Source of the DNA: a virus
Taxonomy: Duplodnaviria; Caudoviricetes
Direction: 5' to 3' (one strand)
DNA length: 53,153 bases
Virus record (IMG/VR): IMGVR_UViG_3300022591_000013
Span: 1-53,153 of that record
Positions 1 to 53,153 of this stretch are shown here, piece by piece; position 1 is the stretch's first letter; each line of letters starts with the position of its first letter. The notes under the pieces were generated by a model. That model saw only the letters and a program-made list of their open reading frames with translations. It did not search any database and had not been told where the DNA came from. Made by a program: the position numbers and the translations under genes.

Positions 1-99
1 GGTGGTTGAGATCCACCCGCAGATGTTGATCAGCTTCTTCTACAAGAAGCTCCTCGACCCGTTCATTCCATATTTCGACTATGGCAAGCCCAGGTCAAT
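1..99. repeat. Terminal direct repeat, identical to 53055-53153 (circular assembly overlap)
   Basis: First 99 nt (ggtggttgag...caggtcaat) are identical to the last 99 nt, and an ORF reads through the junction. Confidence 0.97.
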
Positions 100-910
100 G
101 CAGTTCATCCTCGACAGCGGCGCATTCTCAGCACGCAATAGTGGGAAGGATATTGACCTGGACGAATATTGTGCGTTCCTGCATAACACCATCGAGTATT
201 GGGATCACTATGTGAATCTCGACGTCATTCCAGGAACCGGAGGCAGAGAGGTCACTGAAGCAGAGATCGACCGCGCAGCATCACTGGGATGGGAGAACTA
301 CAAGTACATGAAGGCGGACGGTCTGGATCCCATTCCCGTGTATCACTACGGCGAGCCGCGCAAGTGGCTGCACAACATGCTTGATGCAGGCTGTGACTAC
401 ATAGGTCTGGGAGGCATGGTAGGGCTTGACGGGACTGGCAGGAAGAGGTGGCTGGATAGCGTCTTCCGAGATATCACGGACGTCCATGGCAACGTGCTAG
501 TGAAGACACACGGTTTTGGCATGACCGCAGTGCCGCTCATGCTGCGATATCCGTGGTACAGCGTCGATAGCATCTCGTGGAAGATTCTCACGATCAACGG
601 GTACGTGGATGTGCCGCGCCTCGACGACAACGGGAAGTTCAGGTTCGACGTGCCATCGCGCACCTTCACGGTGTCGACACAGCACTCCCATTTCAAGCAG
701 CAGGGGAAGCACGCAACGCACGCAGGTATAACTGACAAGGAGGTCATAGAGCGATGGCTTGAGCATTGCGGCGTGACGTGGGGAGAGGTGGCAGAAGACT
801 ACACCGCACGTGCCCGCTGCAATCTAATTCTGTACAGCAGTTTCGCGAAGCACAAAAAGGAAGCAGGCGTCGTTGGCGCCCGCTTTGTCCAGGAATCATT
901 CTTCGACTAG
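2..910 (+). CDS. dpdA: DpdA/TGT-like DNA-guanine transglycosylase, paralogue B (3' part; true start ATG 53014 across the circular junction, about 316 aa)
   Basis: TGT-barrel-like motifs ILDSGAFS, LDVIP, PIPVYHYGE, YIGLGG, HGFG, PWYSVDS; lies at the end of the folE-queC-queC-dpdA run. Confidence 0.8.
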   Translation: MVEIHPQMLISFFYKKLLDPFIPYFDYGKPRSMQFILDSGAFSARNSGKDIDLDEYCAFLHNTIEYWDHYVNLDVIPGTGGREVTEAEIDRAASLGWENYKYMKADGLDPIPVYHYGEPRKWLHNMLDAGCDYIGLGGMVGLDGTGRKRWLDSVFRDITDVHGNVLVKTHGFGMTAVPLMLRYPWYSVDSISWKILTINGYVDVPRLDDNGKFRFDVPSRTFTVSTQHSHFKQQGKHATHAGITDKEVIERWLEHCGVTWGEVAEDYTARARCNLILYSSFAKHKKEAGVVGARFVQESFFD

Positions 911-921
911 GAGCAACAGCA

Positions 922-1986
922 ATGAGCGACATCAACCGAGAGCACCTTCTTCAATCACTGAACTTGGCCAAGGCAGCAGTCGCCGGTCAAGCCTATGTGC
1001 CAGCACTCACCCACTTCGCCTTTGATGGCTGGGGGGTGCTCGCATATAACGACGTCTCTGCCATCGGCATACACGCGCCCATTGACATGCCTGTGTGCCT
1101 TCCTGCCGAGATGCTGATCAAGACGTTGAACAGCATGACTGCCGAGAGCATCCTGATCACCGAGACGGGCGAGGATGCAGTCGTGGTGGCAGCAGGCAGA
1201 TCCAAGGTGAAGATCCCGTTCCTGCCGCTTAACTCATTCCCGTTCGAGTTCCCGCCGGTGTGCTATGACGACGGGTTCATTGTCACTGCCGATATGCTGA
1301 AGGGCATTGAGAAATGCCTGGTCGGGGTTGGCACAGATCCGACGCACCCAGCGCAGATGGGAGTCACCCTCGAGGCCACCGAGTTCGGATGCGTCCTGTA
1401 CTCCACGGACAACTTCACGATCTCCCGCTACAAGTCGAAGTCGCACATCAAGCTCCCGGGCAATGTGCCGATCATCCTGCCTGCATTCTTCTGTAACCAA
1501 ATGCTGGCGCTGGCCAAGGCATTCATGGACGAGGAGATTGCCGTAGGGCTCCCCAAGGGGGCAATCTGTGCCAACTTCGGCGGGCAGGCGATGCTATTCA
1601 CGAAACTGCTGGTGGATCTCGAGCCACTCGACTTCGCGCGCCTGTTCAGCAAGTATCTTCAGGGAGCAGGTACGGACGACGCCGCGGAGATTCCCAACGG
1701 ATTCGAGTCGGCACTAGACCGCGCCCTGCTGATCCTCTCGACCGAGATGGACAAGGCCACCAATATCAGCGTCGCCGGCGGCAAGATGCGACTGTTCTCA
1801 TCCTCCGGCCAAGGCGAGGCGACGGACCTGTTGGCATTCGAGCACCCCGACACGGATTCGTTCCTAGCAGACCCCGCCCTGGTATCGCGTGCGTCCAAGA
1901 CCTGCCGCAAGATGAAACTTCTTGAGAAGGTCATGCTGCTTACGGATGGGCAGTTCCTGCACCTCATCGCACACTGCTCCGTCTAG
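922..1986 (+). CDS. dnaN: DNA polymerase III beta-type sliding clamp
   Basis: 354 aa; N-terminus INREHLLQSLNLAKAAV...VPALTHF, internal LYSTDNFTIS (cf. the ATDxxRL clamp motif); GGAG RBS; next to polymerase and clamp loader. Confidence 0.8.
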   Translation: MSDINREHLLQSLNLAKAAVAGQAYVPALTHFAFDGWGVLAYNDVSAIGIHAPIDMPVCLPAEMLIKTLNSMTAESILITETGEDAVVVAAGRSKVKIPFLPLNSFPFEFPPVCYDDGFIVTADMLKGIEKCLVGVGTDPTHPAQMGVTLEATEFGCVLYSTDNFTISRYKSKSHIKLPGNVPIILPAFFCNQMLALAKAFMDEEIAVGLPKGAICANFGGQAMLFTKLLVDLEPLDFARLFSKYLQGAGTDDAAEIPNGFESALDRALLILSTEMDKATNISVAGGKMRLFSSSGQGEATDLLAFEHPDTDSFLADPALVSRASKTCRKMKLLEKVMLLTDGQFLHLIAHCSV

Positions 1987-2009
1987 CACTCGCCCTCAGG
2001 GAGAGTGCT

Positions 2010-4610
2010 GTGGGGTTCTTTTACAACGGGACGCGCGGGCAGGCGAAGAAGGCCACTCCGGATAGCAGGCGTATCCCGATCGACACAATGCAGAGGATGG
2101 GCTGTGACGCCTGTCCTCTGGACAAGGCGAAGCTGACGACTCCGAAGATGTCTCCTTCCGGCACGGAGCGCCCGCTGATCTACGTGCTGGGCGAGGCACC
2201 AGGGGAGAATGAAGACCTCGAGGGCGAGCCGTTCGTTGGCAAGTCTGGCCGACTGCTTCGATCGCAGTTCCCCGCCTCGGTTCTCAGGCGCGACGTTCGC
2301 ATAAGCAACACGATACGCTGCCGCCCTCCGGAGAACAGAACTCCGGAGATGCCTGAGATCGAATGCTGCCGCCTCAAGGGCCAAGAGGATATAGAGCGGA
2401 CTGCACCGAAGGTCATCGTCGGGACGGGCAACATCCCGCTCAACTGGGCGACGGGGCTTTCGTCTGTCACTGCCTGGCGCGGCAAGCTGATCGCCACTAA
2501 GATCGGCAACCACCCGTGTTGGTACTATCCCGTTCTACACCCGTCGTTTGTACTGCGTAAGCAAAGCAAGTATCGCAAGAGCGAGTTCGAGCTTTGCCTT
2601 GAGCACGACATCGGGTGGATCCTTGACAATGCAGAGCGACTTCCCAATGCCAAGGTGCATGAGGCCCCCTACGATCGCGGCATAGAGATCATCGAAGGCC
2701 AAACCCTAGCTGACTTCAACCGACTGGAGGACATTCTCAATGAGCTTGCGAAGGAACCCAGTGTTGCGATCGACCTTGAAACAGGAGATGGAAAGACAGG
2801 GCTGGGATGCCTGCGACCCTACGTGGATGATCCAAAGATTTTCACGTGCTCTATTGGGACATTCGATAGGGTGGCTGCGTTTCCGATGGATCACCCGCAG
2901 GGATGGAACAGCAGTCTTCGTCGCAGAGTCTGGGCACTTGTTGCGGAGTTCTTACTGTCATCTCGGCGCAAGATCGCCCATCACCTTGGATTCGAGCTTG
3001 AGTGGCTCACCTACTTCTACGGGCGGGAGCTTGCGAATCTGACCGAGTGGGAGGACACGATGGCCCAGGCGCATACGCTCGACGAGCGCATCGGAACCCT
3101 GAGCCTGGACGACCTCACTCGGCAGCATTTCGGGTTCTTCTTGAAAGCCCAGTCCAAGGTAGATCCAAAGCGGCTTCTCGAGTACCCCATCCGCGATGCA
3201 CTGCGCTACAACGGGATGGACTCGAAATGGACGCACCTGCTGTACGAGACGCAGCGGCCGCTGGTTGAGCGCGAGCCCAAGTTCATTCGGGAGTACGAAC
3301 GCAAGCTGAGACTTGAGCCCGCCCTAGTGCTGACACAACAGAAGGGCATCCTCGTTGATTTTGACTATGCCCGGGAGATGGAGACCAAGCTGGTCAAAGA
3401 CCTGGCGGGCATTGAGATGAAGCTGGAGAAGTGCCCCGAGATTGGCAAGTACAAAGCGCAGTTCGGAACGTTCCTGGCATCCTCACCTGACCACGTCCTG
3501 CGGTTGATGAAAGACGTATGCCACAGAGACGAGGTTCGCAAGGAGGAAGGCGGGCACACATCGGACGAAGCGGCGCTGTCGAAGATACCGGAGGGGGAGG
3601 TTCCGTCCGCCCCCTTGATCCTTGAGCACCGGTCCGTGATGAAGCTGGCTGGAACTTACATCCTGCCACTGCTGGCGGGCAGAAACGCGTACCGCGACGG
3701 CCGCATGCACCCGAAGTTCAGCAGCATGGTGGCGGTGACCGGACGCCTTGCATGCGAAGACCCCAACGCGCAGAACTATCCCAAGCGCAAGCACAAGGAG
3801 ATTCGCGGCGTTGTAGTTCCGCCGCCAGGCGAATGGATAGCAGCGGCCGACTATGGACAGCTAGAGGCCCGCGTTATCGGCATGGCAAGCCGGGATGATG
3901 CCTTGTGCAGGGCGCTATGGACGGGGTACGACATCCACGGCTTCTGGGCAAATCGTTTCATGGAGGAGTACCCGCGCATCAAGGATCGCATGATCAAGGA
4001 CTACAAGGTGGATGGTGACGATGCGAAGCTGATCCGCAAGAAGTTCCGAGACGAGATTAAGAACGGGTGGGTGTTCCCGCAGTTCTTCGGATCGGCAGTG
4101 CGGTCGTGTGCCCAGGCGTTGCAGGTTCCCGATATGATTGCCGAGGACTTGGGAAAGGAGTTTTGGGATGAGTTCAGGGGAGTGAAGAAGTGGCAGGACA
4201 AGCTCCTCAAAGACTATGAGAAGAACCTGTACGTCGAGACTCTGACCGGACGCAGGCGCCGCGGCCCGCAGTCTAAGAACGAGATCATCAATGCGCCAAT
4301 CCAGGGCACTGCTGCGGATATCGTGACGGAGTCCATGGCAGAGCTATCGGAGATGTCAGTCATCCTCGACGAGCTCGAGCTCCAACCGAACATCAATGTG
4401 CATGACGACCTGACCACCAACTTGCAGGATCCCGGACTGGAGGACCGCCTTGAGCAGATCGCCCTCGTTATGTGCAGGCACCGCTTCGACTTCATCAACG
4501 TGCCGCTGATCATCGAGTTCTCTGTCGGAGAGCGGTGGAATACGCTGCAAGAGATCGCTGTGTATCGCAGCAATGAGATGTATAGATTACCAAACCCCTA
4601 CGAGGCATGA
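2010..4610 (+). CDS. polA: Family A DNA polymerase with N-terminal family-4 uracil-DNA-glycosylase-like domain and 3'-5' exonuclease domain
   Basis: UDG-4 motifs CDACPL, GEAPG, CRPPENRTP, HPSF; exonuclease DLET and YNGMD; polymerase TGRL, motif A ADYGQLEARV, NAPIQGTAAD, motif C VHDD. Confidence 0.93.
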   Translation: MGFFYNGTRGQAKKATPDSRRIPIDTMQRMGCDACPLDKAKLTTPKMSPSGTERPLIYVLGEAPGENEDLEGEPFVGKSGRLLRSQFPASVLRRDVRISNTIRCRPPENRTPEMPEIECCRLKGQEDIERTAPKVIVGTGNIPLNWATGLSSVTAWRGKLIATKIGNHPCWYYPVLHPSFVLRKQSKYRKSEFELCLEHDIGWILDNAERLPNAKVHEAPYDRGIEIIEGQTLADFNRLEDILNELAKEPSVAIDLETGDGKTGLGCLRPYVDDPKIFTCSIGTFDRVAAFPMDHPQGWNSSLRRRVWALVAEFLLSSRRKIAHHLGFELEWLTYFYGRELANLTEWEDTMAQAHTLDERIGTLSLDDLTRQHFGFFLKAQSKVDPKRLLEYPIRDALRYNGMDSKWTHLLYETQRPLVEREPKFIREYERKLRLEPALVLTQQKGILVDFDYAREMETKLVKDLAGIEMKLEKCPEIGKYKAQFGTFLASSPDHVLRLMKDVCHRDEVRKEEGGHTSDEAALSKIPEGEVPSAPLILEHRSVMKLAGTYILPLLAGRNAYRDGRMHPKFSSMVAVTGRLACEDPNAQNYPKRKHKEIRGVVVPPPGEWIAAADYGQLEARVIGMASRDDALCRALWTGYDIHGFWANRFMEEYPRIKDRMIKDYKVDGDDAKLIRKKFRDEIKNGWVFPQFFGSAVRSCAQALQVPDMIAEDLGKEFWDEFRGVKKWQDKLLKDYEKNLYVETLTGRRRRGPQSKNEIINAPIQGTAADIVTESMAELSEMSVILDELELQPNINVHDDLTTNLQDPGLEDRLEQIALVMCRHRFDFINVPLIIEFSVGERWNTLQEIAVYRSNEMYRLPNPYEA

Positions 4611-4611
4611 A

Positions 4612-4806
4612 ATGCCCTACGCAGACCGCTGGCTCATCTTGCACCCCGAGAGCGATAGCCTGTTCGAGATCCACGACCATAGAGTTCTGCGCCAGTGCCT
4701 TCGTGATGGATGCCAAGACGTCACTGGCATCGAAGACTGGGAGCATATGTTCAAGAGGTACGGGAAGTTCTACATTAAACCGAGAAGGAAGCTGATCCAT
4801 GAGTAA
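4612..4806 (+). CDS. Hypothetical protein (64 aa)
   Basis: Fills the gap between pol and clamp loader; GAGG upstream. Confidence 0.6.
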   Translation: MPYADRWLILHPESDSLFEIHDHRVLRQCLRDGCQDVTGIEDWEHMFKRYGKFYIKPRRKLIHE

Positions 4807-5740
4807 CACAGACCCGCTGCATATCAAGTATCGCCCTGCCAACTTGAAGGAGGTTGTCGGGCAGAAGGACGTTGTGTCGTCCTTGCAGGCAATGATCAAG
4901 AGCAAGTCGCGCGCCCATTCGTTCCTATTCACTGGGCCAAGCGGCTGCGGCAAGACAACCCTCGCCCGAATCATCGCATCAGAGTTTGGCTGCGACCGCT
5001 CCAACATCGTTGAGGCGGATGCCGCAACCAACAACGGAATCGACGACATGCGAGGCATAACGGAGACGCTCCGCTACGCAGGATTCGGCGACTCCCCCAA
5101 CAAGATGGTCATCATCGACGAATGCCATGCACTCAGCAAGGCGGCATGGCAATCGCTGCTCAAGGCCGTGGAGGAGCCGCCGCCGCACGTCTTCTTCGCG
5201 TTCTGCACTACGGACCCAGGCAAGGTGCCGGAGACGATCAAGACCCGCTGCTTGAGCTACAACGTCAAGCCCTTGAAATACGACGACATGATGGACCTGC
5301 TTGAGGCAGTCGCTGACGATGAACGGCTTGACGTGACGAAGGCACTGCTGGGAACAGTAGCCAGGGCCAGCGACGGCTCCCCGCGGCGGGCATTGGTACA
5401 GCTTGCAATGGTGCTGGACTGCAATAGCGATGCCGAGGTGCAGACGCTACTCGAGCAGCCATTCGAGAACAAGGAGATCATCGACCTCTGCCGCAAGATG
5501 ATCGAGCGCGACCTGCAATGGAAAGACGCGGTCAAGGTGCTAGGCGACATGACCGAGATGGCGCCCGAGTCGATCCGCATCGTCGTGACCAACTACGTCG
5601 CCGGATGCCTCATGCGGCCCAAGTCGGAGAAGGACGTGCCGCGGTTGCTGGATGTACTGCACGCCTTCAGCAAGCCCTGCAACCCAACCGACAAGCTGGC
5701 GCCCATCCTTCTCGCGATGGGCCAGGTGCTCTACGACTAG
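4799..5740 (+). CDS. dnaX: Clamp loader AAA+ ATPase (DnaX gamma/tau-like)
   Basis: KYRP...VVGQ, Walker A GPSGCGKTT, Walker B IIDECHAL, LLKAVEEPP, TIKTRC, GSPR. Confidence 0.92.
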   Translation: MSNTDPLHIKYRPANLKEVVGQKDVVSSLQAMIKSKSRAHSFLFTGPSGCGKTTLARIIASEFGCDRSNIVEADAATNNGIDDMRGITETLRYAGFGDSPNKMVIIDECHALSKAAWQSLLKAVEEPPPHVFFAFCTTDPGKVPETIKTRCLSYNVKPLKYDDMMDLLEAVADDERLDVTKALLGTVARASDGSPRRALVQLAMVLDCNSDAEVQTLLEQPFENKEIIDLCRKMIERDLQWKDAVKVLGDMTEMAPESIRIVVTNYVAGCLMRPKSEKDVPRLLDVLHAFSKPCNPTDKLAPILLAMGQVLYD

Positions 5741-16351: not shown

Positions 16352-16626
16352 ATAAACCACTGCTGTACTTTGCGGGACACCCCGTGCATCTGAACGACGA
16401 GTTGATGGTGACGCGCACCGTCGAGGAGATACCGCGAACGTGGCGCGAAAGACTTTTCACCTGGCCCTGGCGCCCACTGCGGAGAACGAGAACCCAGGTC
16501 ACCGAGGTACCATCCCGCGCCGTTATGTTCATCAACGACGACGCGCTGGTCATGCACTCGGAACTGTGGCGCGATATCCAAGCGGCCGTGAAGCGCAACC
16601 AGGAGGCGGCAGCAGAGCTGTGGTAA
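16348..16626 (+). CDS. Hypothetical protein
   Basis: GAGGAG RBS, ATGA coupling. Confidence 0.65.
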   Translation: MNKPLLYFAGHPVHLNDELMVTRTVEEIPRTWRERLFTWPWRPLRRTRTQVTEVPSRAVMFINDDALVMHSELWRDIQAAVKRNQEAAAELW

Positions 16627-16958
16627 GCCGCCGCCAGACAACGGTGGAACGCATCCGCCAGCTACGCCTGAACATGCTCGTCCATTCGTACATCTACTAC
16701 ACGATGAACGAAAGCCTCATCAGCGACCACGAGTGGCAGCGACGTGCAGACGAACTGGTGGCACTGCAAGCACAACACACCGCGAAGATAAATTGCTACG
16801 ACGCCGCATTCGACGGGTGGGATGCCAGCACCGGATACCACCTTCCCGCAGATCACTGGGTCCAGTCGAAGGCGGACTATCTTCTACGGCACTTCTCGAC
16901 GACGTATGTACCTCCGCAACCAGCACCACGTCGCCGAGGACTGCTCGATAGCACCTAG
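16620..16958 (+). CDS. Stand-alone NAD-dependent DNA ligase domain Ia-like protein
   Basis: RIRQLR..MLVHSYIYY..NESLISDHEW....ELVALQ resembles the LigA N-terminal HxxxYY...ISDxEYD pattern; no adenylation domain follows. Confidence 0.6.
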   Translation: MVSRRQTTVERIRQLRLNMLVHSYIYYTMNESLISDHEWQRRADELVALQAQHTAKINCYDAAFDGWDASTGYHLPADHWVQSKADYLLRHFSTTYVPPQPAPRRRGLLDST

Positions 16959-41849: not shown

Positions 41850-42572
41850 ATGTTCGGCACAAACCCAATTCGGAAGCAGGATCTCAAGGACGGCGCAACG
41901 CTCCGCGTGCAGGAGATATTCAAGACGGTGCAAGGCGAAGGGCCGCATGCGGGGCGACCAGCAATCTTCGTTCGGCTGGCAGGCTGTAACCTGCGCTGCA
42001 CCTTCTGCGATACAGACTTCGAGAGCGGCTACCAAAACCAGCTCTCAATCCCCGACATCATGCAGATGATCGCCAATGCCAAACAGGAGTCGCACATATC
42101 CCTGGTCGTGATCACGGGCGGCGAGCCGCTGCTTCAGAACATCATCCCGCTGATCAAGCTCCTTCGTCGGTCCGCATACGATGTGCAGATAGAGACGGCC
42201 GGGACGGTCTGGATCCCCGAGCTCGATCAGCTTCTGTTCTTCCTAGGTGCAGATTCGCTGGTGTGCTCGCCCAAGACCCCTAAGATCCACCCGGACGTGT
42301 CGCGCATGTGCAGTCACTGGAAATACATCGTCAGTGAGACGAACGTGTCGGACGAGGACGGACTGCCAAACATGAGCACCCAGCCTGGCGCTGCCAAGGA
42401 AGGCCCGCTGTACCGCCCGCCGCCCAACTCCCACGGCGTGATCTGGGTGCAGCCGCTTGACTCCGGCGACAAGGAGCAGAACATACGGAACCTGTACGCC
42501 TCGATCGAATCCTGCATGAAGTTTGGGCACCGCCTGTCCGTGCAGATCCACAAAGTGATCGGGCTCCCGTGA
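41850..42572 (+). CDS. queE: 7-carboxy-7-deazaguanine synthase (radical SAM)
   Basis: EIFKTVQGEG, FVRLAGCNLRCTFCDT, VITGGEPLLQ, IETAG, CSPK, RLSVQIHK. Confidence 0.95.
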   Translation: MFGTNPIRKQDLKDGATLRVQEIFKTVQGEGPHAGRPAIFVRLAGCNLRCTFCDTDFESGYQNQLSIPDIMQMIANAKQESHISLVVITGGEPLLQNIIPLIKLLRRSAYDVQIETAGTVWIPELDQLLFFLGADSLVCSPKTPKIHPDVSRMCSHWKYIVSETNVSDEDGLPNMSTQPGAAKEGPLYRPPPNSHGVIWVQPLDSGDKEQNIRNLYASIESCMKFGHRLSVQIHKVIGLP

Positions 42573-43468: not shown

Positions 43469-44849
43469 CGATGAGTTCTGCCCCATCGTCCGTAACACGG
43501 TCAGCGCCAATCTATTCGAGTCGAAGATATTCAAGGAGATTGCATCGCATGCGATTGACTACTTCGACCAGTTCAAGGAAGCAATCAAGGAGCACCTAGC
43601 AGATGAGCTAGAGGGCATCCTCGACGGAACGGACAAGCGCAAGGCCGCGAGCTACAAGCGCGTCCTCGATAACCTATTCATGGCCAAGGACGGCATGAAC
43701 AGGGAGTACGTCGTATCCAAGCTCAACGTCTTCGTCCGGCAGCAGGGGCTGAAGTCCGCCATCGTCAAGGCAGTTGAGGCGGTGGAGAGCGGCAATATCG
43801 ACCAAGCCGAGATAGAGCTGAACAAGGGGCTGTCGTCGCAGATGGTCTCCTTCGAGCTTGGCACGAACTTCTCCGATCCCAAGCAGTCGCTCCAGTTCTT
43901 CGACCACGTTGCAGACGGGATACAGACAGGCATCGGGCAGTTGGACCGACGCGATATCTGCCCGCGACGGCAGGAGCTGTTCATGTTTGTTGCCCCTGCG
44001 AAGAAGGGCAAATCGTGGGCTCTCATCCAGGTGGGGAAGTACGCACTGCTTCAGCGCAAGAAGGTGTTGCACGTTACGCTTGAGATGTCGGAGCAGCGGG
44101 TCAGCATGCGCTACATCCAGAGCTTCTTCTCGATCTCCAAGCGGGAGGCGAAATTGCAGTGCCCGAAATTCACCTTGGACGAGTATGGGCAGTTCAGCAA
44201 CATCACCATGGAGGAGATCGTCCGCCCTACGTTGAAGGATGCAGGCATCCGCGCCCACCTGACTTCCCGACTGACGCGAGAGTTCAGGAAACGCCCGCCG
44301 CTAATCATCAAGCAGTTTCCCACCGGTTCGCTGACCATACCAATGCTCAATGCGTACCTTGACGGCCTCGAGAGATTCCACAAGTTCGTGCCAGACGTGC
44401 TGATCGTGGATTATCCCAAGCTCATGAAGCTCGACGCGCAGAACCTGCGGATAGAGCTGGGAGGGATTACGGAGAAGCTCCGCGGGGTAGCGGTGGAAAG
44501 GAACCTAGCACTTGTCACGGCTGCACAAGGCAATCGTGATTCGGCCAGCGCCCAGATCGTGACGGACACGATGATCGGCGAAGACTACAGCCAGATCGCT
44601 ACCGCAGACAACGTCGTCACCTACACGCAGACAGCGCAGGAAAAGGCCCTAGGGTTGGCTAGGCTGTACGTGTCGAATGGGCGCAACGACGAGGACAAGT
44701 TCGTCGTGCTGGTATCGCAGTCTTATGCGATAGGGCAGTTCTGCCTCGACTCGGCAATGATGGCGAACCACTACGACGATCTCCTTGAGCGGCTATCTCC
44801 TACCGCAGAGGGGAGGCGCCGCAGGCGTGCAGCAGGCGACCGCGAATGA
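43407..44849 (+). CDS. Replicative DnaB-like helicase
   Basis: TGI..LD, Walker A APAKKGKS, HVTLEMS, LIVDY, VTAAQGNR, TADNV. Confidence 0.88.
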   Translation: MKEELLSGALQENILTLLVFDDEFCPIVRNTVSANLFESKIFKEIASHAIDYFDQFKEAIKEHLADELEGILDGTDKRKAASYKRVLDNLFMAKDGMNREYVVSKLNVFVRQQGLKSAIVKAVEAVESGNIDQAEIELNKGLSSQMVSFELGTNFSDPKQSLQFFDHVADGIQTGIGQLDRRDICPRRQELFMFVAPAKKGKSWALIQVGKYALLQRKKVLHVTLEMSEQRVSMRYIQSFFSISKREAKLQCPKFTLDEYGQFSNITMEEIVRPTLKDAGIRAHLTSRLTREFRKRPPLIIKQFPTGSLTIPMLNAYLDGLERFHKFVPDVLIVDYPKLMKLDAQNLRIELGGITEKLRGVAVERNLALVTAAQGNRDSASAQIVTDTMIGEDYSQIATADNVVTYTQTAQEKALGLARLYVSNGRNDEDKFVVLVSQSYAIGQFCLDSAMMANHYDDLLERLSPTAEGRRRRRAAGDRE

Positions 44850-46432
44850 TTGCCAAGGACGCCCTCAAAGCGTACATGTCTCGGGAGCTGGACTCCTGCA
44901 CTTGGATGAAGAAGCTCCCGCGCGAAGTGCTCGAACGGGAGCTTCGTGGTTTCAAGGTGCGCCCCAAGTTCAAGGGCCGCGATCCTTGGACGCACCAGCT
45001 GGCCTGCTTCCTGATCGGGTGCAGTTATCCCGAATACTTGTTTCTTCTCGACATGGGATTAGGCAAGACGCGCATTCTTCTCGACCTGATGACGCAGCGC
45101 CAACGCGAGGGCAGGTTCAGCAGGGCAATCGTGACTGTTCCTCGGCTTGTCAATCTGGGGTCGTGGGAGGATGCGATTAGGGAGTATTCGGACTTCGAGC
45201 CCAACATCGTCAGCGGCAGCGTCGAGGAAAAGTGGGAAGCACTATCCAACCCGAAGGGCGATATCACGGTCATCGACTATCCGGGGCTTCAGCATGCACT
45301 GTCGTCGCGCCTGTCCGGAAGCAAGATGTCAGAGAAGGGCCAGCGCGCAGGTAAGAACTTCGAGTACGGCAAGGATGACAAGCGCATCCGGCAGGTGGCG
45401 AAGCTGTACTCGTTCTTCGGGATGGACGAGAGCCACAAGTCGAAGAACAAGGATGCCCTGCGGTTCAAGTTATTGAAGCGGCTGACGGCGACAATGCCCT
45501 ACAGATACGCCACGACAGGAACGCTCTTCGGCAGGAACCCCGAGGACATCTGGGCACAGTTCTACTTGGTAGATCACGGCGAGACATTCGGCGACACGCT
45601 AGGGATGTTCCGCGCTGCATTCTTCCGCGAGGTTGAGAACTACTGGAAGCAGGAGTTCGCCTTCAACAAAGGCATGACGCGCGAGCTGTATCGGTTCCTG
45701 CACCACCGCTCTATTCGGTACTCCGAGGACGAATGCCTTGACCTCCCGCGCCGCAGGCACGTGACGATACCGATTCGATTCACAGAGGAGCAGCGTGACC
45801 ACTACATGCGCGCAGTGGATGGGCTGATCAATGCAAGAGGTGAATTGAAGGAGCTTGACTCGAACTATCTACGCATGCGGCAGATATGCGCTGGGTTCCT
45901 CGAGTGGCGCGAGGGCGACGAGAAGGCCCGCGTCATATTCCGCAACAACCCGAAACTGGACGCCCTCGAGCGGCTGGTCGTCGAGTCTGGGGACTCCAAG
46001 CTGGTGGTCTCCCACGAATACACTCTGTCCGGGCAGATGATCACGGAACGCCTCGACGAGATGGGCGTCAAGTTCGAATGGCTGTATGGCAAGTCGAAGG
46101 ACCCAATCAATGCCGTGCGCCGCTTCCTAGCAGACCCCGACAAGCGCGTGTTCGTGATGAACAGCGAGTCTGGCGGCACAGGTACGGACGGACTCCAGAA
46201 ACAGGCGCGGTATCTTGTCTTCTACGAAAGCCCCGTATCGCCAATAACCCGCCAGCAGGTACTGAAGCGCGTGCATCGCCCCGGGCAGGAACGCGAGCCC
46301 GTGATCTACGACCTAGTCATGGAGAAGTCGATAGACGCTCGCATTCTGGGCTTCGTAAAGGAAGGCCAGGACCTACATGCGGCAGTGGTAGATGGGCGCG
46401 TTGATCCAAGAAGTTTTTCACTGTTGCGTTAA
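44846..46432 (+). CDS. SNF2-like superfamily 2 helicase
   Basis: DMGLGKT, DESH, TGT, SGGTGTDGLQ, KRVHRPGQ. Confidence 0.9.
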   Translation: MIAKDALKAYMSRELDSCTWMKKLPREVLERELRGFKVRPKFKGRDPWTHQLACFLIGCSYPEYLFLLDMGLGKTRILLDLMTQRQREGRFSRAIVTVPRLVNLGSWEDAIREYSDFEPNIVSGSVEEKWEALSNPKGDITVIDYPGLQHALSSRLSGSKMSEKGQRAGKNFEYGKDDKRIRQVAKLYSFFGMDESHKSKNKDALRFKLLKRLTATMPYRYATTGTLFGRNPEDIWAQFYLVDHGETFGDTLGMFRAAFFREVENYWKQEFAFNKGMTRELYRFLHHRSIRYSEDECLDLPRRRHVTIPIRFTEEQRDHYMRAVDGLINARGELKELDSNYLRMRQICAGFLEWREGDEKARVIFRNNPKLDALERLVVESGDSKLVVSHEYTLSGQMITERLDEMGVKFEWLYGKSKDPINAVRRFLADPDKRVFVMNSESGGTGTDGLQKQARYLVFYESPVSPITRQQVLKRVHRPGQEREPVIYDLVMEKSIDARILGFVKEGQDLHAAVVDGRVDPRSFSLLR

Positions 46433-49559: not shown

Positions 49560-50507
49560 ATGTCCATAATCAGCCTCGACAGATGCAAGGCCGCAGCAGA
49601 ATCCTTGGGCCGTCGCATCAACGAGCTCTACGGGATGAACCCCATGAACATCTGGGGCATCCCGCGCGGCGGGTTCAACGCGGCGATGCTGCTTAGTCAG
49701 AAGTTCTGGCACCTCAAGATGGTCGAGGATCCATTGCATGCAACTCTTGCGATTGACGACATCGTCGATACCGGAAGCACCGCCCAGCAGGTCATGCAGT
49801 TCTACGGCCTCCCAACTGCGACGCTGTTCGCCCACGACTTCAAGATTTTGGGAGACGAGGTGATCGCGTATGGGGAGCTGCTCACCAAGGAAGACGGGTT
49901 CGTCAATTTCCCGTGGGAGTTCATGTTCAAGAGCAACGACTTCGACTCCGCACACGACTCGGTGGTCCGCATGTTGCAGGCAATCGGCGAGGACCCTGCC
50001 CGCGAAGGGCTCAAGGAAACGCCCAAGCGCGTTGTCAAGGCGTGGGGCGAGTGGTTCAAAGGGTACGGGCAGAACCCCGCCGACGTGCTCAAGGTATTCG
50101 AGGATGGTGCCGAGGGGTATGGCGAGATGGTGCTCCTCACGAACATCCCTGTCTATTCGCACTGCGAGCACCACATCACCCCCTTCGTCGGCGTAGCGCA
50201 CGTTGCCTACATTCCCAACGGCAAGATCGTCGGCTTGTCCAAGATCGCCCGCGTCGTCGAGATATTCTCCCGCCGTCTGCAAGTGCAGGAGCGACTGACC
50301 AACCAGATCGCCGACGCATTGGTTGCGAACTTAGAGCCGCAGGGGGTGGCAGTAGTCATTCAGGCGAAGCACTTCTGCATGGCTACCCGAGGCGTCAAGA
50401 TGCCGAACGTTGATACGCACACCTCTGCAATGCGCGGCGCCTTCTTCGATAGCGCAGCAACGCGCGCGGAGTTTATGAGTCTGATTCGCGCTGCTCATCA
50501 GCCATGA
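49560..50507 (+). CDS. folE: Fusion of purine phosphoribosyltransferase-like domain and GTP cyclohydrolase I
   Basis: PRTase [21 protein letters not shown]; Fol[43 protein letters not shown]. Confidence 0.92.
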
Positions 50508-50755
50508 AAGTATTGGCCTATGATCTGGACGGAACTTTGCTTGCAAGAGAAAAGCCGATCCAGCACATGATCGAGGAGGTGAATGCTGCGTTCGAAGATG
50601 CAGATAATTTCATCGTCATCTACACAGCACGAAGCTACACCCTTTTTCATCAGACGAGATCACTTCTTCTGAAGTATGGCATCAAGCATCACGCCCTCGT
50701 CATGGAGAAGATGCGCGCCAACTGCTACATCGATGATCGTGCGAGGAAGCCATGA
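50504..50755 (+). CDS. Minimal cap-less HAD-superfamily phosphatase-like protein
   Basis: [14 protein letters not shown]...YIDDRA. Confidence 0.8.
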
Positions 50756-51423
50756 GAACAGTCCAGCTGTATGGAGGCGGCATTGACAGCCTCTGCATCT
50801 CCTACCTGGTAAAGCCTGACGTGAAGGTGTATTTCAATCTGGGTACAGAGGAAGCACCGCATGAGGAGAAGGTCGCCCGCAGGAGAGGTGCCATCATCGA
50901 CTATCGTTTCACCCTTAAGGACCAGGTTCTTCCGAATAAGATACTGCCTCTGCGTAACCTGCTCCTTGTCGCTGGGGCTGCGTACTACGGCAACTACATC
51001 ATCGTCGGAAGCACTGCCGGAGATACTACGAAGGACAAGGACGAGAGGTTCATGGTCCTATGCACGGAACTTCTACAGCATGTTCTTGTCGGAGATCCTG
51101 ACAAGTCCTTGCCTTGGTTCAACGATGGTGTTGCCGTGGTCGCGCCTCGCCGCAACTCAACCAAGGCCGAGCTAGTTCGGGAATACCTTACCGCAGGAGG
51201 GAGCGCTCAAGACCTCATCATCAACTCAAGGTCGTGCTATCACAGCGGCGCTTTGGAATGCGGCGTCTGCCGAAGCTGTGTCCGGAAGTATGTAGCATTG
51301 AAGTTGAATGGCATCACCACCGAGGCATTTCAAAGCAAACCTGACCTTCAGGAAGCGTATGACTATGCCTTATCTCACAACCGCGGCCGCGAGGCCGCTG
51401 AAATCAAGGAGTGCTTCAAATGA
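50752..51423 (+). CDS. queC: QueC-like ATP pyrophosphatase, paralogue A
   Basis: PP-loop variant YGGGIDS, PLRNL, KAELV, zinc site SCY...CGVCRSC. Confidence 0.8.
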   Translation: MRTVQLYGGGIDSLCISYLVKPDVKVYFNLGTEEAPHEEKVARRRGAIIDYRFTLKDQVLPNKILPLRNLLLVAGAAYYGNYIIVGSTAGDTTKDKDERFMVLCTELLQHVLVGDPDKSLPWFNDGVAVVAPRRNSTKAELVREYLTAGGSAQDLIINSRSCYHSGALECGVCRSCVRKYVALKLNGITTEAFQSKPDLQEAYDYALSHNRGREAAEIKECFK

Positions 51424-52121
51424 AGAGAGTTATCATGGCAACTGGCGGCATGGACAGCACCGTGCTGCTGTATATGAGCATGCTGGTCGACAAGGTCAGG
51501 CCGCAGATCGTCACCGTCGATTACGGGCATCTCGCATTCAAGAAGCAGCTCGAAATGATCCAGCATCACGTTGACATCCTGAAGCTGGATTCGCCGCAGG
51601 TGATCACCATCAACTATCAGGGCTGGCAGAAGAAGCCAGCCCTCTTCTCCGGCACTGGCCTTCGGGATACCGATGCTGACCACCCGATGAAGGGCAAGCG
51701 CATCTTCGACGACCAGGAGATGCGATACGCCGAGATGTTCGTCGAAGGCAGGAACCTGATCATGGCGGCGTACTGCATGGCCTACGCCAGCAGCATTGGC
51801 GCCGACGAGCTGTGGGCAGGCTATCTCCGCGGGCCGGCTGAGTGGGCGAACCAACGCAGCTACAAGATGATCACCGGCGACAACAGCCCGCAGTTCGTCG
51901 ATGCCATGAATACCATGAGCTTCATGGGGTTCAGCCATCAAGTCCGCATGCGCGCCCCTTACTACGAGGGACGCCTCAGCAAGAACGATGTTGCCAAGCT
52001 CGGTGCCAAGCTCGGAGTTGATCTCAGTCTTACGCACAGCTGCTACTGGCCCGAAGCTTGCGGCGAGTGCGATAACTGCCTGCTACGAGCCGAAGCACTG
52101 CGCCGGCTCACTCAGGTCTAA
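51420..52121 (+). CDS. queC: QueC-like 7-cyano-7-deazaguanine synthase, paralogue B
   Basis: PP-loop TGGMDST, DYG, FVEGRNLI, LSKNDV..LG..LGV....THSCY...CGECDNCLLR. Confidence 0.85.
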   Translation: MKRVIMATGGMDSTVLLYMSMLVDKVRPQIVTVDYGHLAFKKQLEMIQHHVDILKLDSPQVITINYQGWQKKPALFSGTGLRDTDADHPMKGKRIFDDQEMRYAEMFVEGRNLIMAAYCMAYASSIGADELWAGYLRGPAEWANQRSYKMITGDNSPQFVDAMNTMSFMGFSHQVRMRAPYYEGRLSKNDVAKLGAKLGVDLSLTHSCYWPEACGECDNCLLRAEALRRLTQV

Positions 52122-52138: not shown

Positions 52139-53017
52139 ATGATCTTCTGGCCTGGTGGCACCATCCGCAGTGATCTCTACAAGTCGCTGCGGATGGCAGA
52201 CTTTCGACTGCACCTATTCAGCTTCTACCACGAGCACAACCGCCGCTTCGACGAGATGAAGGATCCGATGCTGGACTTCAGATACTTCGCGGACAGCGGC
52301 GCCTTCTCTGCCTGGACTCGCGGCGACCCAATCGACATAGAGGAGTACAGCGCGTTCGTTCGCTATCACGCGGGATACCTCGAGGCGTACGCTGCGCTTG
52401 ACGTGATCCCCGAGTCGACGCATCCATCCGAACTTGAGCGGGCAGCAGGCAGGTCGTGGCAGAACTATCTCGACATGAAGGCAGACGGCCTCGATCCCAT
52501 TCCCATCTACCACTACGGAGAGTCGCGCAAGTGGCTGGACATGCTGCTAGGAAGCGGCTGCACATACATAGGGCTGGGAGGCATGGGAAATGCGAACAGA
52601 GCCGAGCGCGCTGCATGGCTGGACAGCGTCTTCCACGATCTGCCCGACGGCATCAAGGTGCATGGGTTCGGGGTATCTGCAATCAACCTCCTCTTCCGGT
52701 ATCCGTGGTACAGCGCAGACAGCATGACGTGGCGCCTTGCCGCGAACAACGGGAACGTATTCATCCCGCTGCACGACGGGACGCAGTTCCTTTACGACCG
52801 ACCGCCATACCTTGTGCATACCAAGGAACTTCTGACCACAGCATCGGACGAGATCGACGAGTGGCTGCGTATTGTTGATACAGATCGTCAGAAGCTGTTC
52901 GACGATTACCGCCACCGCGGCGCCTGCAATGCGGTATTCATGCGCGAGGTCACTGCACACCATGCAGAGCACGGCCCTAAGAAGCGCAGCAGCGCACAAC
53001 AAGGGTTCTTCAAATGA
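52139..53017 (+). CDS. dpdA: DpdA/TGT-like DNA-guanine transglycosylase, paralogue A
   Basis: FADSGAFS, LDVIP, PIPIYHYGE, YIGLGG, VHGFG, PWYSADS. Confidence 0.8.
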   Translation: MIFWPGGTIRSDLYKSLRMADFRLHLFSFYHEHNRRFDEMKDPMLDFRYFADSGAFSAWTRGDPIDIEEYSAFVRYHAGYLEAYAALDVIPESTHPSELERAAGRSWQNYLDMKADGLDPIPIYHYGESRKWLDMLLGSGCTYIGLGGMGNANRAERAAWLDSVFHDLPDGIKVHGFGVSAINLLFRYPWYSADSMTWRLAANNGNVFIPLHDGTQFLYDRPPYLVHTKELLTTASDEIDEWLRIVDTDRQKLFDDYRHRGACNAVFMREVTAHHAEHGPKKRSSAQQGFFK

Positions 53018-53153
53018 TTCTGTGGATCGGCACTGGGCAGGAGTACAAGGAGCTGGTGGTTGAGATCCACCCGCAGATGTTGATCAGCTTCTTCTACAAG
53101 AAGCTCCTCGACCCGTTCATTCCATATTTCGACTATGGCAAGCCCAGGTCAAT
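53014..53153 (+). CDS. dpdA: 5' end of DpdA paralogue B (continues at 2..910)
   Basis: ATG overlaps the paralogue A stop (ATGA); MILWIGTGQEYKELVVEIHPQM joins the ORF at position 2 in frame. Confidence 0.85.
   Translation, partial: MILWIGTGQEYKELVVEIHPQMLISFFYKKLLDPFIPYFDYGKPRS
53055..53153. repeat. Terminal direct repeat, identical to 1-99
   Basis: Exact sequence match. Confidence 0.97.

Follow-up and report, generated by a model that had tools for sequence, protein, structure and literature searches.

Modification of DNA with 7-deazaguanine bases is a widespread counter-defence of phages. Three accounts of it (PMC10516641, PMC10164549 and PMC6884629) leave unexplained, in the parts of their text that were available, how a phage transglycosylase finds phage DNA, how it reaches up to one third of guanines and how it dispenses with DpdB. 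The bacterial transglycosylase DpdA depends on DpdB, a ParB-fold ATPase homodimer with a positively charged tunnel of ~20 A in the model, which may encircle DNA (PMC10164549). The subject here is a metagenomic virus contig of the Caudoviricetes, IMG/VR record IMGVR_UViG_3300022591_000013 (53,153 nucleotides; "the window" denotes this whole stretch), which encodes two tandem paralogues of the DNA 7-deazaguanine transglycosylase, DpdA-A and DpdA-B, followed by a DnaN-type beta sliding clamp. Both paralogues end in a short peptide resembling the motifs by which other proteins bind such clamps.

Clamp-binding motifs follow the consensus QL[SD]LF or QLxLxL. In the bacterial clients of the beta clamp (DNA polymerases II and IV, the alpha and delta subunits of polymerase III, UmuC, MutS, MutL and Hda), as in the DpdA tails, the motif is a short, flexible and often terminal peptide with a glutamine and a hydrophobic pair, and several clients share one clamp, as is proposed here (PMC3716654, PMC9690074). 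DpdA differs from these in being a DNA base-exchange enzyme, a class not listed among clamp clients in the literature consulted, and the clamp differs in being encoded by the phage. Non-polymerase phage proteins that use a sliding clamp through a clamp-binding motif are MuC of phage Mu and the clamp clients of T4 (PMC12867686, PMC6212786), but these serve transcription or ligation rather than base modification, and MuC uses the host clamp. A DNA-modifying enzyme tied to replication by a clamp-binding region is exemplified by Dnmt1, the N-terminal region of which contains a PCNA-binding part (PMC4575159), although there the clamp is PCNA, the motif is a PIP box, methyl transfer takes the place of base exchange, and a pattern is maintained rather than blanket protection from restriction conferred. 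If the DpdA tails do dock on the clamp, they would offer a simple answer to the questions left by the literature on phage transglycosylases, bring a new enzyme class among the clients of sliding clamps, and form a prokaryotic-virus counterpart of replication-coupled methylation by DNMT1 and PCNA.

Tandem DpdA paralogues and the adjacent clamp

DpdA-B terminates in GARFVQESFFD, with the stop codon TAG at 908-910 in a frame that is open from base 2, and DpdA-A terminates in SSAQQGFFK, with the stop codon TGA; both tails are as the original prediction had reported them. The two proteins are 41% identical, and their last ~20 residues are dissimilar apart from the Q-x-[SG]-F-F end, so the further claim that this end is kept while the preceding sequence diverges was also confirmed. 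Relative to the clamp-binding consensus, QESFF and QQGFF keep the glutamine at position 1, the small residue at position 3 and the hydrophobic residues at positions 4 and 5, with FF in place of LF, but not the leucine at position 2. Because the record closes into a circle through a 99-nucleotide terminal repeat (53055-53153 being identical to bases 1-99, and the record being classed as 'direct terminal repeats' in IMG/VR), the true start of DpdA-B is the ATG at 53014, which overlaps the DpdA-A stop codon (ATGA), and its full length is 316 amino acids. The circular gene order is FolE, QueC, QueC, DpdA-A, DpdA-B (across the junction), clamp, polymerase and clamp loader.

Neither paralogue matched a Pfam family. 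The AlphaFold2 (AF2) model of DpdA-B has a mean predicted local distance difference test (pLDDT) score of 86, and the best fold match in the PDB is to bacterial DpdA, a DNA preQ0 insertase (7UI4), with TGT entries coming next (probability 1.00, template modelling (TM) score ~0.5); thus DpdA-B, the paralogue modelled, has the TIM-barrel fold of the TGT/DpdA family to which the bacterial enzyme belongs. Residues D38, S39, G40, D74, H115, H170 and D189 are invariant across 36 DpdA sequences. Beyond the last predicted helix (residues 267-288), residues 289-302 have a pLDDT of ~55 and no secondary structure in the model, and the motif lies inside this predicted disordered C-terminal stretch. The locus differs from the bacterial DpdA-DpdB system in that no ParB_N domain was found in the window and in that phage DpdA works without DpdB in E. 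coli; the candidate ring partner in the window is instead a replicative clamp, reached through a terminal peptide.

Homologues of DpdA-B were found by tblastn in 195 named phage records, those of 9g, CAjan, Seurat and Iggy among them. The first 6 kb of the window had no match among named phages by megablast. DpdA-B is 48% identical to its homologue in Edwardsiella phage vB_EpM_ZHS and ~31-33% identical to the characterised DpdA1 enzymes of 9g, the CAjan/Seurat group and Iggy, which share the gene order dpdA-clamp-polymerase. The window differs from these phages in having two tandem DpdA paralogues with tails in FF rather than LF, and from the Queuovirinae in the type of its polymerase, which is of family A and fused to UDG. 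Phage 9g, Seurat and PaMx25-like phages were considered as clamp-less negative controls and rejected, since all of them have dpdA, clamp and polymerase in this order.

The clamp gene begins with the ATG at 922, after an 11-nucleotide spacer that places its first base 12 nucleotides after the DpdA-B stop codon, just as predicted from the sequence. The AF2 model of its product, folded as a monomer (pLDDT 96), has the three-domain fold of bacterial beta clamps (Foldseek E = 5e-24, TM ~0.8) and matches solved clamp-peptide and clamp-MutL entries, and a clamp profile matched PDB beta clamps with E = 1.4e-31. Of the Pfam DnaN domains, the N-terminal one scored 25.0 bits (cut-off 24.4) and the central one 21.1 (cut-off 27), and the C-terminal one gave no match. 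Residue P258 is nearly invariant and aligns with the F/Y-P-D motif of bacterial clamps; this proline would line the peptide cleft. A cognate clamp loader is encoded farther downstream (Table 1).

The linkage of dpdA to a clamp extends well beyond the window. With an iterated clamp profile, built because tblastn with the window clamp alone missed clamps of the 9g type, 99 of 101 loci proved to have a clamp open reading frame (ORF) shortly after dpdA on the same strand, the loci being the rotated window, two named phages and 98 from IMG/VR. The two loci without one (L057 and L078) stop ~0.2 and 4.3 kb after dpdA. In 14 of 16 further named phages (9g, Seurat, JG012, RHEph04, BcepGomr, Vid5, ART, a Stenotrophomonas phage, Synechococcus phage Yong-L2-223, VspDsh_1, pVco-14, ZHS, Iggy and Dp-1), dpdA is followed by zero to five other genes and then by the clamp, which in BcepGomr is gp28 according to the profile. 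A polymerase gene comes directly after the clamp, or after one or two small ORFs, in 12 named phages; ZHS and Iggy have a few more small genes between dpdA, clamp and polymerase. In Dp-1, DnaN lies two small genes downstream of dpdA, and there is no polymerase among the features listed for the stretch that was fetched. The clamp is 2.5 kb downstream of dpdA in phiSM and 3.3 kb downstream in R5C, where the stretch ends before a polymerase.

Recurrence of the terminal motif

Relatives of DpdA were sampled as 98 IMG/VR loci, each with 10 kb of flanking sequence, and as 150 representative proteins. A terminal motif, defined as a bulky hydrophobic pair or G-F-x-L within the last few residues (an end like QxxLF or like GFGL), is present in 61 of 92 distinct DpdA tails from the loci, compared to 273 of 1331 background ORFs, which are all others of at least 200 amino acids that these loci contain (Fisher odds ratio 7.6, p = 1e-19, uncorrected for relatedness). 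The 61 tails comprise 31 of the five-residue type, 4 of the LL type and 26 of the GFGL type, the last of which occurs in only one of the 1331 background ORFs. Both classic forms of clamp-binding motif recur in DpdA tails, the five-residue form as QxxLF and the six-residue form as GFGL. The motif recurs in relatives of only 31-60% identity, and it is conserved behind a linker that varies in both length and sequence. Another 18 short tails are missed by the regular expression; on visual inspection, ~12 of them come close to it (such as RRIGL, SFSL, FGLRR and QQSLNF). Among the 150 representatives, 39 have a hydrophobic pair within the last four residues, and most of the others belong to a class of long proteins that is considered below. 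All three tandem DpdA duplications found (the window, L055 and L068) have a tail on both copies.

One representative (P0048) bears the motif three times (VRKEFFD, KKVGFFE and KKKGFFV), spread along a C-terminal extension. In a group of large phages (L016-L026, contigs of 110-166 kb), DpdA ends in ARRIGL and a more divergent clamp lies ~1.1 kb downstream, with a clamp loader nearby; this clamp was missed by tblastn and found by the iterated profile.

Among named phages, together with the window, a tail is present in 17 of 18 DpdAs from clamp-encoding genomes: LQDLFDE in 9g, VMELF in Seurat, IQELF in JG012, Iggy and Vid5, QRRLF in Dp-1, EQRLF in RHEph04, QQGLFV in BcepGomr, QVSLF in R5C, QMELLG in ART, QMELF in the Stenotrophomonas phage, PVLF in Yong-L2-223, QGLF in VspDsh_1 and pVco-14, and KQSLW in ZHS. 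A glutamine stands two or three residues before the hydrophobic pair in 15 of the 18. The tail is absent from all eight DpdAs of seven actinophages (Typha, Mufasa8, Megan, Saguaro, Finch, Sour and Quesadilla), in the whole records of which the A2 clamp profile found no clamp, while it recovered those of 9g (E = 1.8e-35), phiSM (9e-21) and Dp-1 (9e-19) as positive controls. The expectation that DpdA homologues carry the tail only where the phage encodes a clamp thus held in this sample (17/18 versus 0/8; Fisher p = 6e-6, uncorrected for relatedness). Chance resemblance of two short C-termini could be argued from a pattern that is only five residues long and from the occurrence of C-terminal hydrophobic pairs in ~20% of background ORFs, but it is scarcely credible in the face of the 61 tails among 92, the near-misses in most of the others and this co-occurrence with the clamp.

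The polymerase encoded after the clamp was predicted to begin MGFFY, and its ORF does read MGFFYN from a GTG at 2010, preceded by a ribosome-binding site (AGGGAGAG at 1998-2005); relatives have ATG at the same start position. This N-terminus proved to be the most informative control. In related family A polymerases, [FWL]F is found at 62 of 69 distinct N-termini, and G[FLM][FLYI] occurs near the N-terminus in 51 of the 69 distinct sequences, compared to 7% of random 36-residue windows. The polymerases encoded beside DpdA and clamp in named phages all start M-x(4-7)-G[FLM]FW (12 of 12). For a polymerase, the expected receptor of such an N-terminal peptide is the clamp, and judging from sequence the GFF or GLFW peptide is probably the clamp-binding motif of these enzymes, which would give two kinds of phage polymerase a likely N-terminal motif of this sort. 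No such motif is described in the available text of a preprint about phage family A polymerases that are fused to UDG (10.1101/2025.03.26.645540). Since a terminal GFF-like peptide is common to two kinds of polymerase and to the DpdAs of clamp-encoding genomes, a common receptor is the simplest reading.

In the T7 system, C-terminal aromatic tails mediate contacts with the polymerase, and the embedding of dpdA in a replication module would also suit docking of its tail on another replisome protein, such as the polymerase, the clamp loader, a helicase or SSB. This is very improbable: the tails are basic to neutral, with a glutamine and a hydrophobic pair, unlike the acidic tails of T7 type; the polymerase has a motif of this kind too, so that a third protein is the more plausible receptor for both; and the clamp gene is the only consistently adjacent one. 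Two other explanations of the tail were rejected. A signal at the nucleotide level, for instance a ribosome-binding site of the next gene, is at odds with the differences in the downstream gene among phages and between the paralogues, and a C-terminal degradation signal is at odds with the N-terminal position of the motif in polymerases.

Two other proteins of the window were considered as clients. The SNF2-like helicase, which ends in RSFSLLR, has close relatives with tails of the LLLGL or FFLG type in 12 of 12 rows (10 distinct tails), and no such tail was found in five more distant relatives; this helicase, too, may dock on the phage clamp. A 172-residue protein (16440-16958) that consists of little beyond the NAD-binding domain of ligase Ia (Nlig-Ia) ends in RRRGLLDST. 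It was not retained as a candidate, since five related genomes yielded no homologue with which to compare the tail.

Proposed clamp docking and its alternatives

The tails of DpdA are rather probably clamp-binding motifs that tether the enzyme to the phage clamp. In the mechanism proposed, DpdA-A and DpdA-B, each a catalytic TIM barrel whose short, disordered tail closes with Q-x-[SG]-F-F, would insert a 7-deazaguanine base. The clamp encoded directly downstream would be loaded by the phage clamp loader and receive the tail in its hydrophobic cleft, in which the N-terminal GFF peptide of the polymerase would also dock. Clamps that sit on newly copied phage DNA, or have been left on it, would thus hold DpdA in place for the exchange of guanines. 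Docking might make DpdA locally more concentrated on phage DNA, or more processive, and might time modification to replication. The original prediction of docking thus gains from gene linkage, conservation of the motif in a disordered end, co-occurrence with the clamp, the polymerase motif and a weak pass in a fold test, and the docking step itself is still an inference. The combination of tail and adjacent clamp also provides a sequence rule by which DpdA genes in metagenomes can be sorted.

The fold test, which had been suggested together with the prediction, combined the clamp (alignment of 86 sequences) with DpdA-B residues 268-302 (alignment of 36). The score was 0.47 (runs of 0.47, 0.40 and 0.47) against 0.02 for the best of three controls, the runs sharing at least 61% of contacts with a partner pLDDT of at least 44. 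In calibration, 58 of 80 solved complexes passed the mark, as did 2 of 110 mismatched pairs; only 7 of the 80 solved complexes, but both of the mismatches, did so at scores of 0.60 or less. One control, in which chain 1 was an unrelated protein, scored 0.00.

Several observations weigh against docking on the phage clamp. The second residue of the motif in the window is E or Q, where the E. coli consensus has L. Five loci (L030, L031, L047, L079 and L087) lack a terminal motif although they stand beside a clamp, and phiSM has the sole tail-less DpdA among the 18 from clamp-encoding genomes. The fold test behind docking is weak, and because many complexes of beta clamps with peptides have been solved, the modelled pair may have passed through likeness to these and not because this copy binds. 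Descent confounds the co-occurrence of tail and clamp: all the DpdAs from clamp-less phages are actinophage proteins of another subfamily, and a DpdA of the window type was not found in any clamp-less phage examined. A search of IMG/VR for further clamp-less controls yielded no relatives of the phiSM DpdA and two loci for the Saguaro DpdA, one of them from the same phage. In addition, 13 distinct long forms of DpdA continue into an extension of 70-120 residues, and their motif-like residues are either internal or missing; where the motif is internal it is not always a free end, and a structural role is possible.

In 9 of these 13 long forms a like motif was seen by eye at a homologous internal position, the internal motifs being AKSLF, VVGFFD, LSGFF, LRGFY, LSNLF, IRSMF, NNGLL and QSYDLF. 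The long forms (P0007-P0153 among the representatives; L012, L013, L032, L034, L035, L037, L050 and L058 among the loci) begin at the LDSGA strand, and their C-terminal extension resembles the N-terminal ~40 residues of DpdAs of the window type. A hidden Markov model of such N-terminal segments matches the long forms at positions ~260-330 (50 matches at E <= 10, 3 at E <= 0.01; on reversed sequences 12 and 0). By sequence comparison the long forms look like circular permutations, and the tandem arrangement of DpdA-A and DpdA-B with its ATGA overlap looks like the duplicated intermediate that would precede a permutation of this kind.

Enzymes of the TGT family are often dimers, and the terminal residues might instead be a structural or self-association element of one DpdA subfamily, packing by the N-terminal strand or joining subunits, in which case the association with the clamp would reflect shared ancestry and gene order. 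In published work, the TGTs of bacteria and archaea function as monomers, and that of eukaryotes is a heterodimer (PMC10164549). Such an element would account for the internal position of the residues in the long, apparently permuted forms, between the core and the transplanted N-terminal element, and for the way in which the presence of the tail follows the DpdA subfamily. It fits poorly with a tail that is predicted to be disordered and unpacked against the domain, with a linker so variable before a conserved end, with the triplicated motif of P0048, with the same motif at the N-terminus of unrelated proteins (the two kinds of polymerase) in the same genomes and with the zero score of the fold with the unrelated chain, and it is considered quite unlikely.

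Experimental results on 9g bear on how far a phage clamp is needed. In E. coli plasmids, 9g DpdA with Gat-QueC gave dG+ at 9-18% of G in the absence of a phage clamp, and 9g DpdA alone gave preQ0 at 0.03-0.3%; the clamp-less Mycobacterium phage Rosebush has dPreQ0 at ~28% of G (PMC6884629). The plasmid modification and the Rosebush level indicate that the clamp is not required for catalysis or for high-level modification. Since the 9g pathway is able to modify E. coli DNA (PMC6884629), strict sparing of host DNA, which the original prediction had envisaged along with modification at the fork, is a poor fit, and the published view is of 'post-replication' insertion (PMC10516641). These results, too, count against docking as proposed, and the clamp may instead serve in timing, in efficiency at natural expression levels or in targeting during infection.

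The same plasmids would be explained if the tail bound the host beta clamp rather than, or besides, that of the phage, the sole clamp in those cells being the host's (PMC6884629). In that case DpdA would go to whatever DNA was being replicated in the infected cell, and the neighbouring phage clamp would be only a member of the replication module. The tails do fit the general bacterial motif (LQDLF in 9g, QVSLF in R5C and QRRLF in Dp-1), and the phage clamp shares its fold with host clamps. However, each tail-bearing DpdA examined is in a genome with its own clamp, allowing for the two loci that end early, and the DpdAs of the clamp-less phages are without tails even though their hosts have clamps. 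Binding to the host clamp is therefore thought unlikely, and docking on the phage clamp is preferred.

An annotated ParB-like gene stands beside the tail-less DpdA in six of the seven clamp-less actinophages and in phiSM (L104, L111, L113, L121, L122, L123 and L106). Together with the dependence of bacterial DpdA on the ParB-fold DpdB and the lack of a ParB_N domain in the window, this suggests two alternative DNA-ring partners for DpdA. A broader view, tentative and on balance doubtful, is that DpdA in general needs to be joined to a ring-shaped protein around DNA in order to work, and that two rings are interchangeable in this role: a ParB-fold NTPase (DpdB in bacteria, the ParB-like neighbour in actinophages and phiSM) or, in the large group of phages with a DnaN-like clamp gene, the replicative beta clamp bound through the terminal peptide. 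The clamp group would be co-replicative, with DpdA and polymerase alternating on a private clamp and marking phage DNA as self within seconds of its synthesis, with a bias away from the host chromosome, and the tandem pair would provide two specificities per clamp.

The coupling of DpdA to a clamp was not known to have been described, and full-text searching found no paper with this subject in its title or abstract. The paper on Iggy (PMC10484667) has no mention of clamp, C-terminal, replisome or processivity; in the text available, PMC6884629 has none of clamp or C-terminal, and PMC10516641 has a single, unrelated 'C-terminal'.

Gene content of the window

The features discussed above are listed in Table 1. 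Genes of the preQ0 pathway (49560-52121) lie immediately upstream of the DpdA pair, and co-located genes of preQ0 synthesis include FolE, two QueC paralogues and QueE (QueD was not searched for).

Table 1. Positions in the window of the DpdA pair, the clamp and associated features, with supporting matches
Feature	Position	Strand	Match or remark
Nearly complete DpdA-B (302 of 316 aa, plus stop)	2-910	+	PHROG 887, E = 7.4e-48
DpdA-B tail QESFFD, clamp-binding-like motif	890-907	+	
DnaN-type beta sliding clamp, 354 aa	922-1986	+	PHROG 947, E = 1e-29
DNA polymerase, 866 aa (UDG, 3'-5' exonuclease, family A polymerase)	2010-4610	+	Pfam UDG, DNA_pol_A_exo1, DNA_pol_A
Polymerase N-terminal MGFFYN	2010-2027	+	
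Clamp loader subunit (AAA+, DNA pol III gamma/delta'-like)	4799-5740	+	Pfam DNA_pol3_delta2, E = 9.5e-23; PHROG 5846 'clamp loader', E = 2.8e-82
QueE	41850-42572		
SNF2-like helicase, ending RSFSLLR (46409-46429)	44846-46432	+	PHROG 62, Pfam SNF2-rel_dom
FolE	49560-50507	+	Pfam GTP_cyclohydroI, E = 4.6e-73
QueC paralogue 1	50752-51423	+	Pfam QueC, E = 9e-9 (far more divergent)
QueC paralogue 2	51411-52121	+	Pfam QueC, E = 5.6e-29
DpdA-A, DNA 7-deazaguanine transglycosylase paralogue, 292 aa	52139-53017	+	PHROG 887 'queuine tRNA-ribosyltransferase', E = 8.8e-40
DpdA-A tail QQGFFK, clamp-binding-like motif	52997-53014	+	Class Q..PhiPhi
DpdA-B 5' part	53014-53153	+	ATG 53014; frame rebuilt over the 99-nt overlap

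The presence of two QueC proteins and two DpdA proteins may mean that two different modified bases are made. FolE has an extra N-terminal region of ~130 residues, for which the only match was a faint one to phosphoribosyltransferases.

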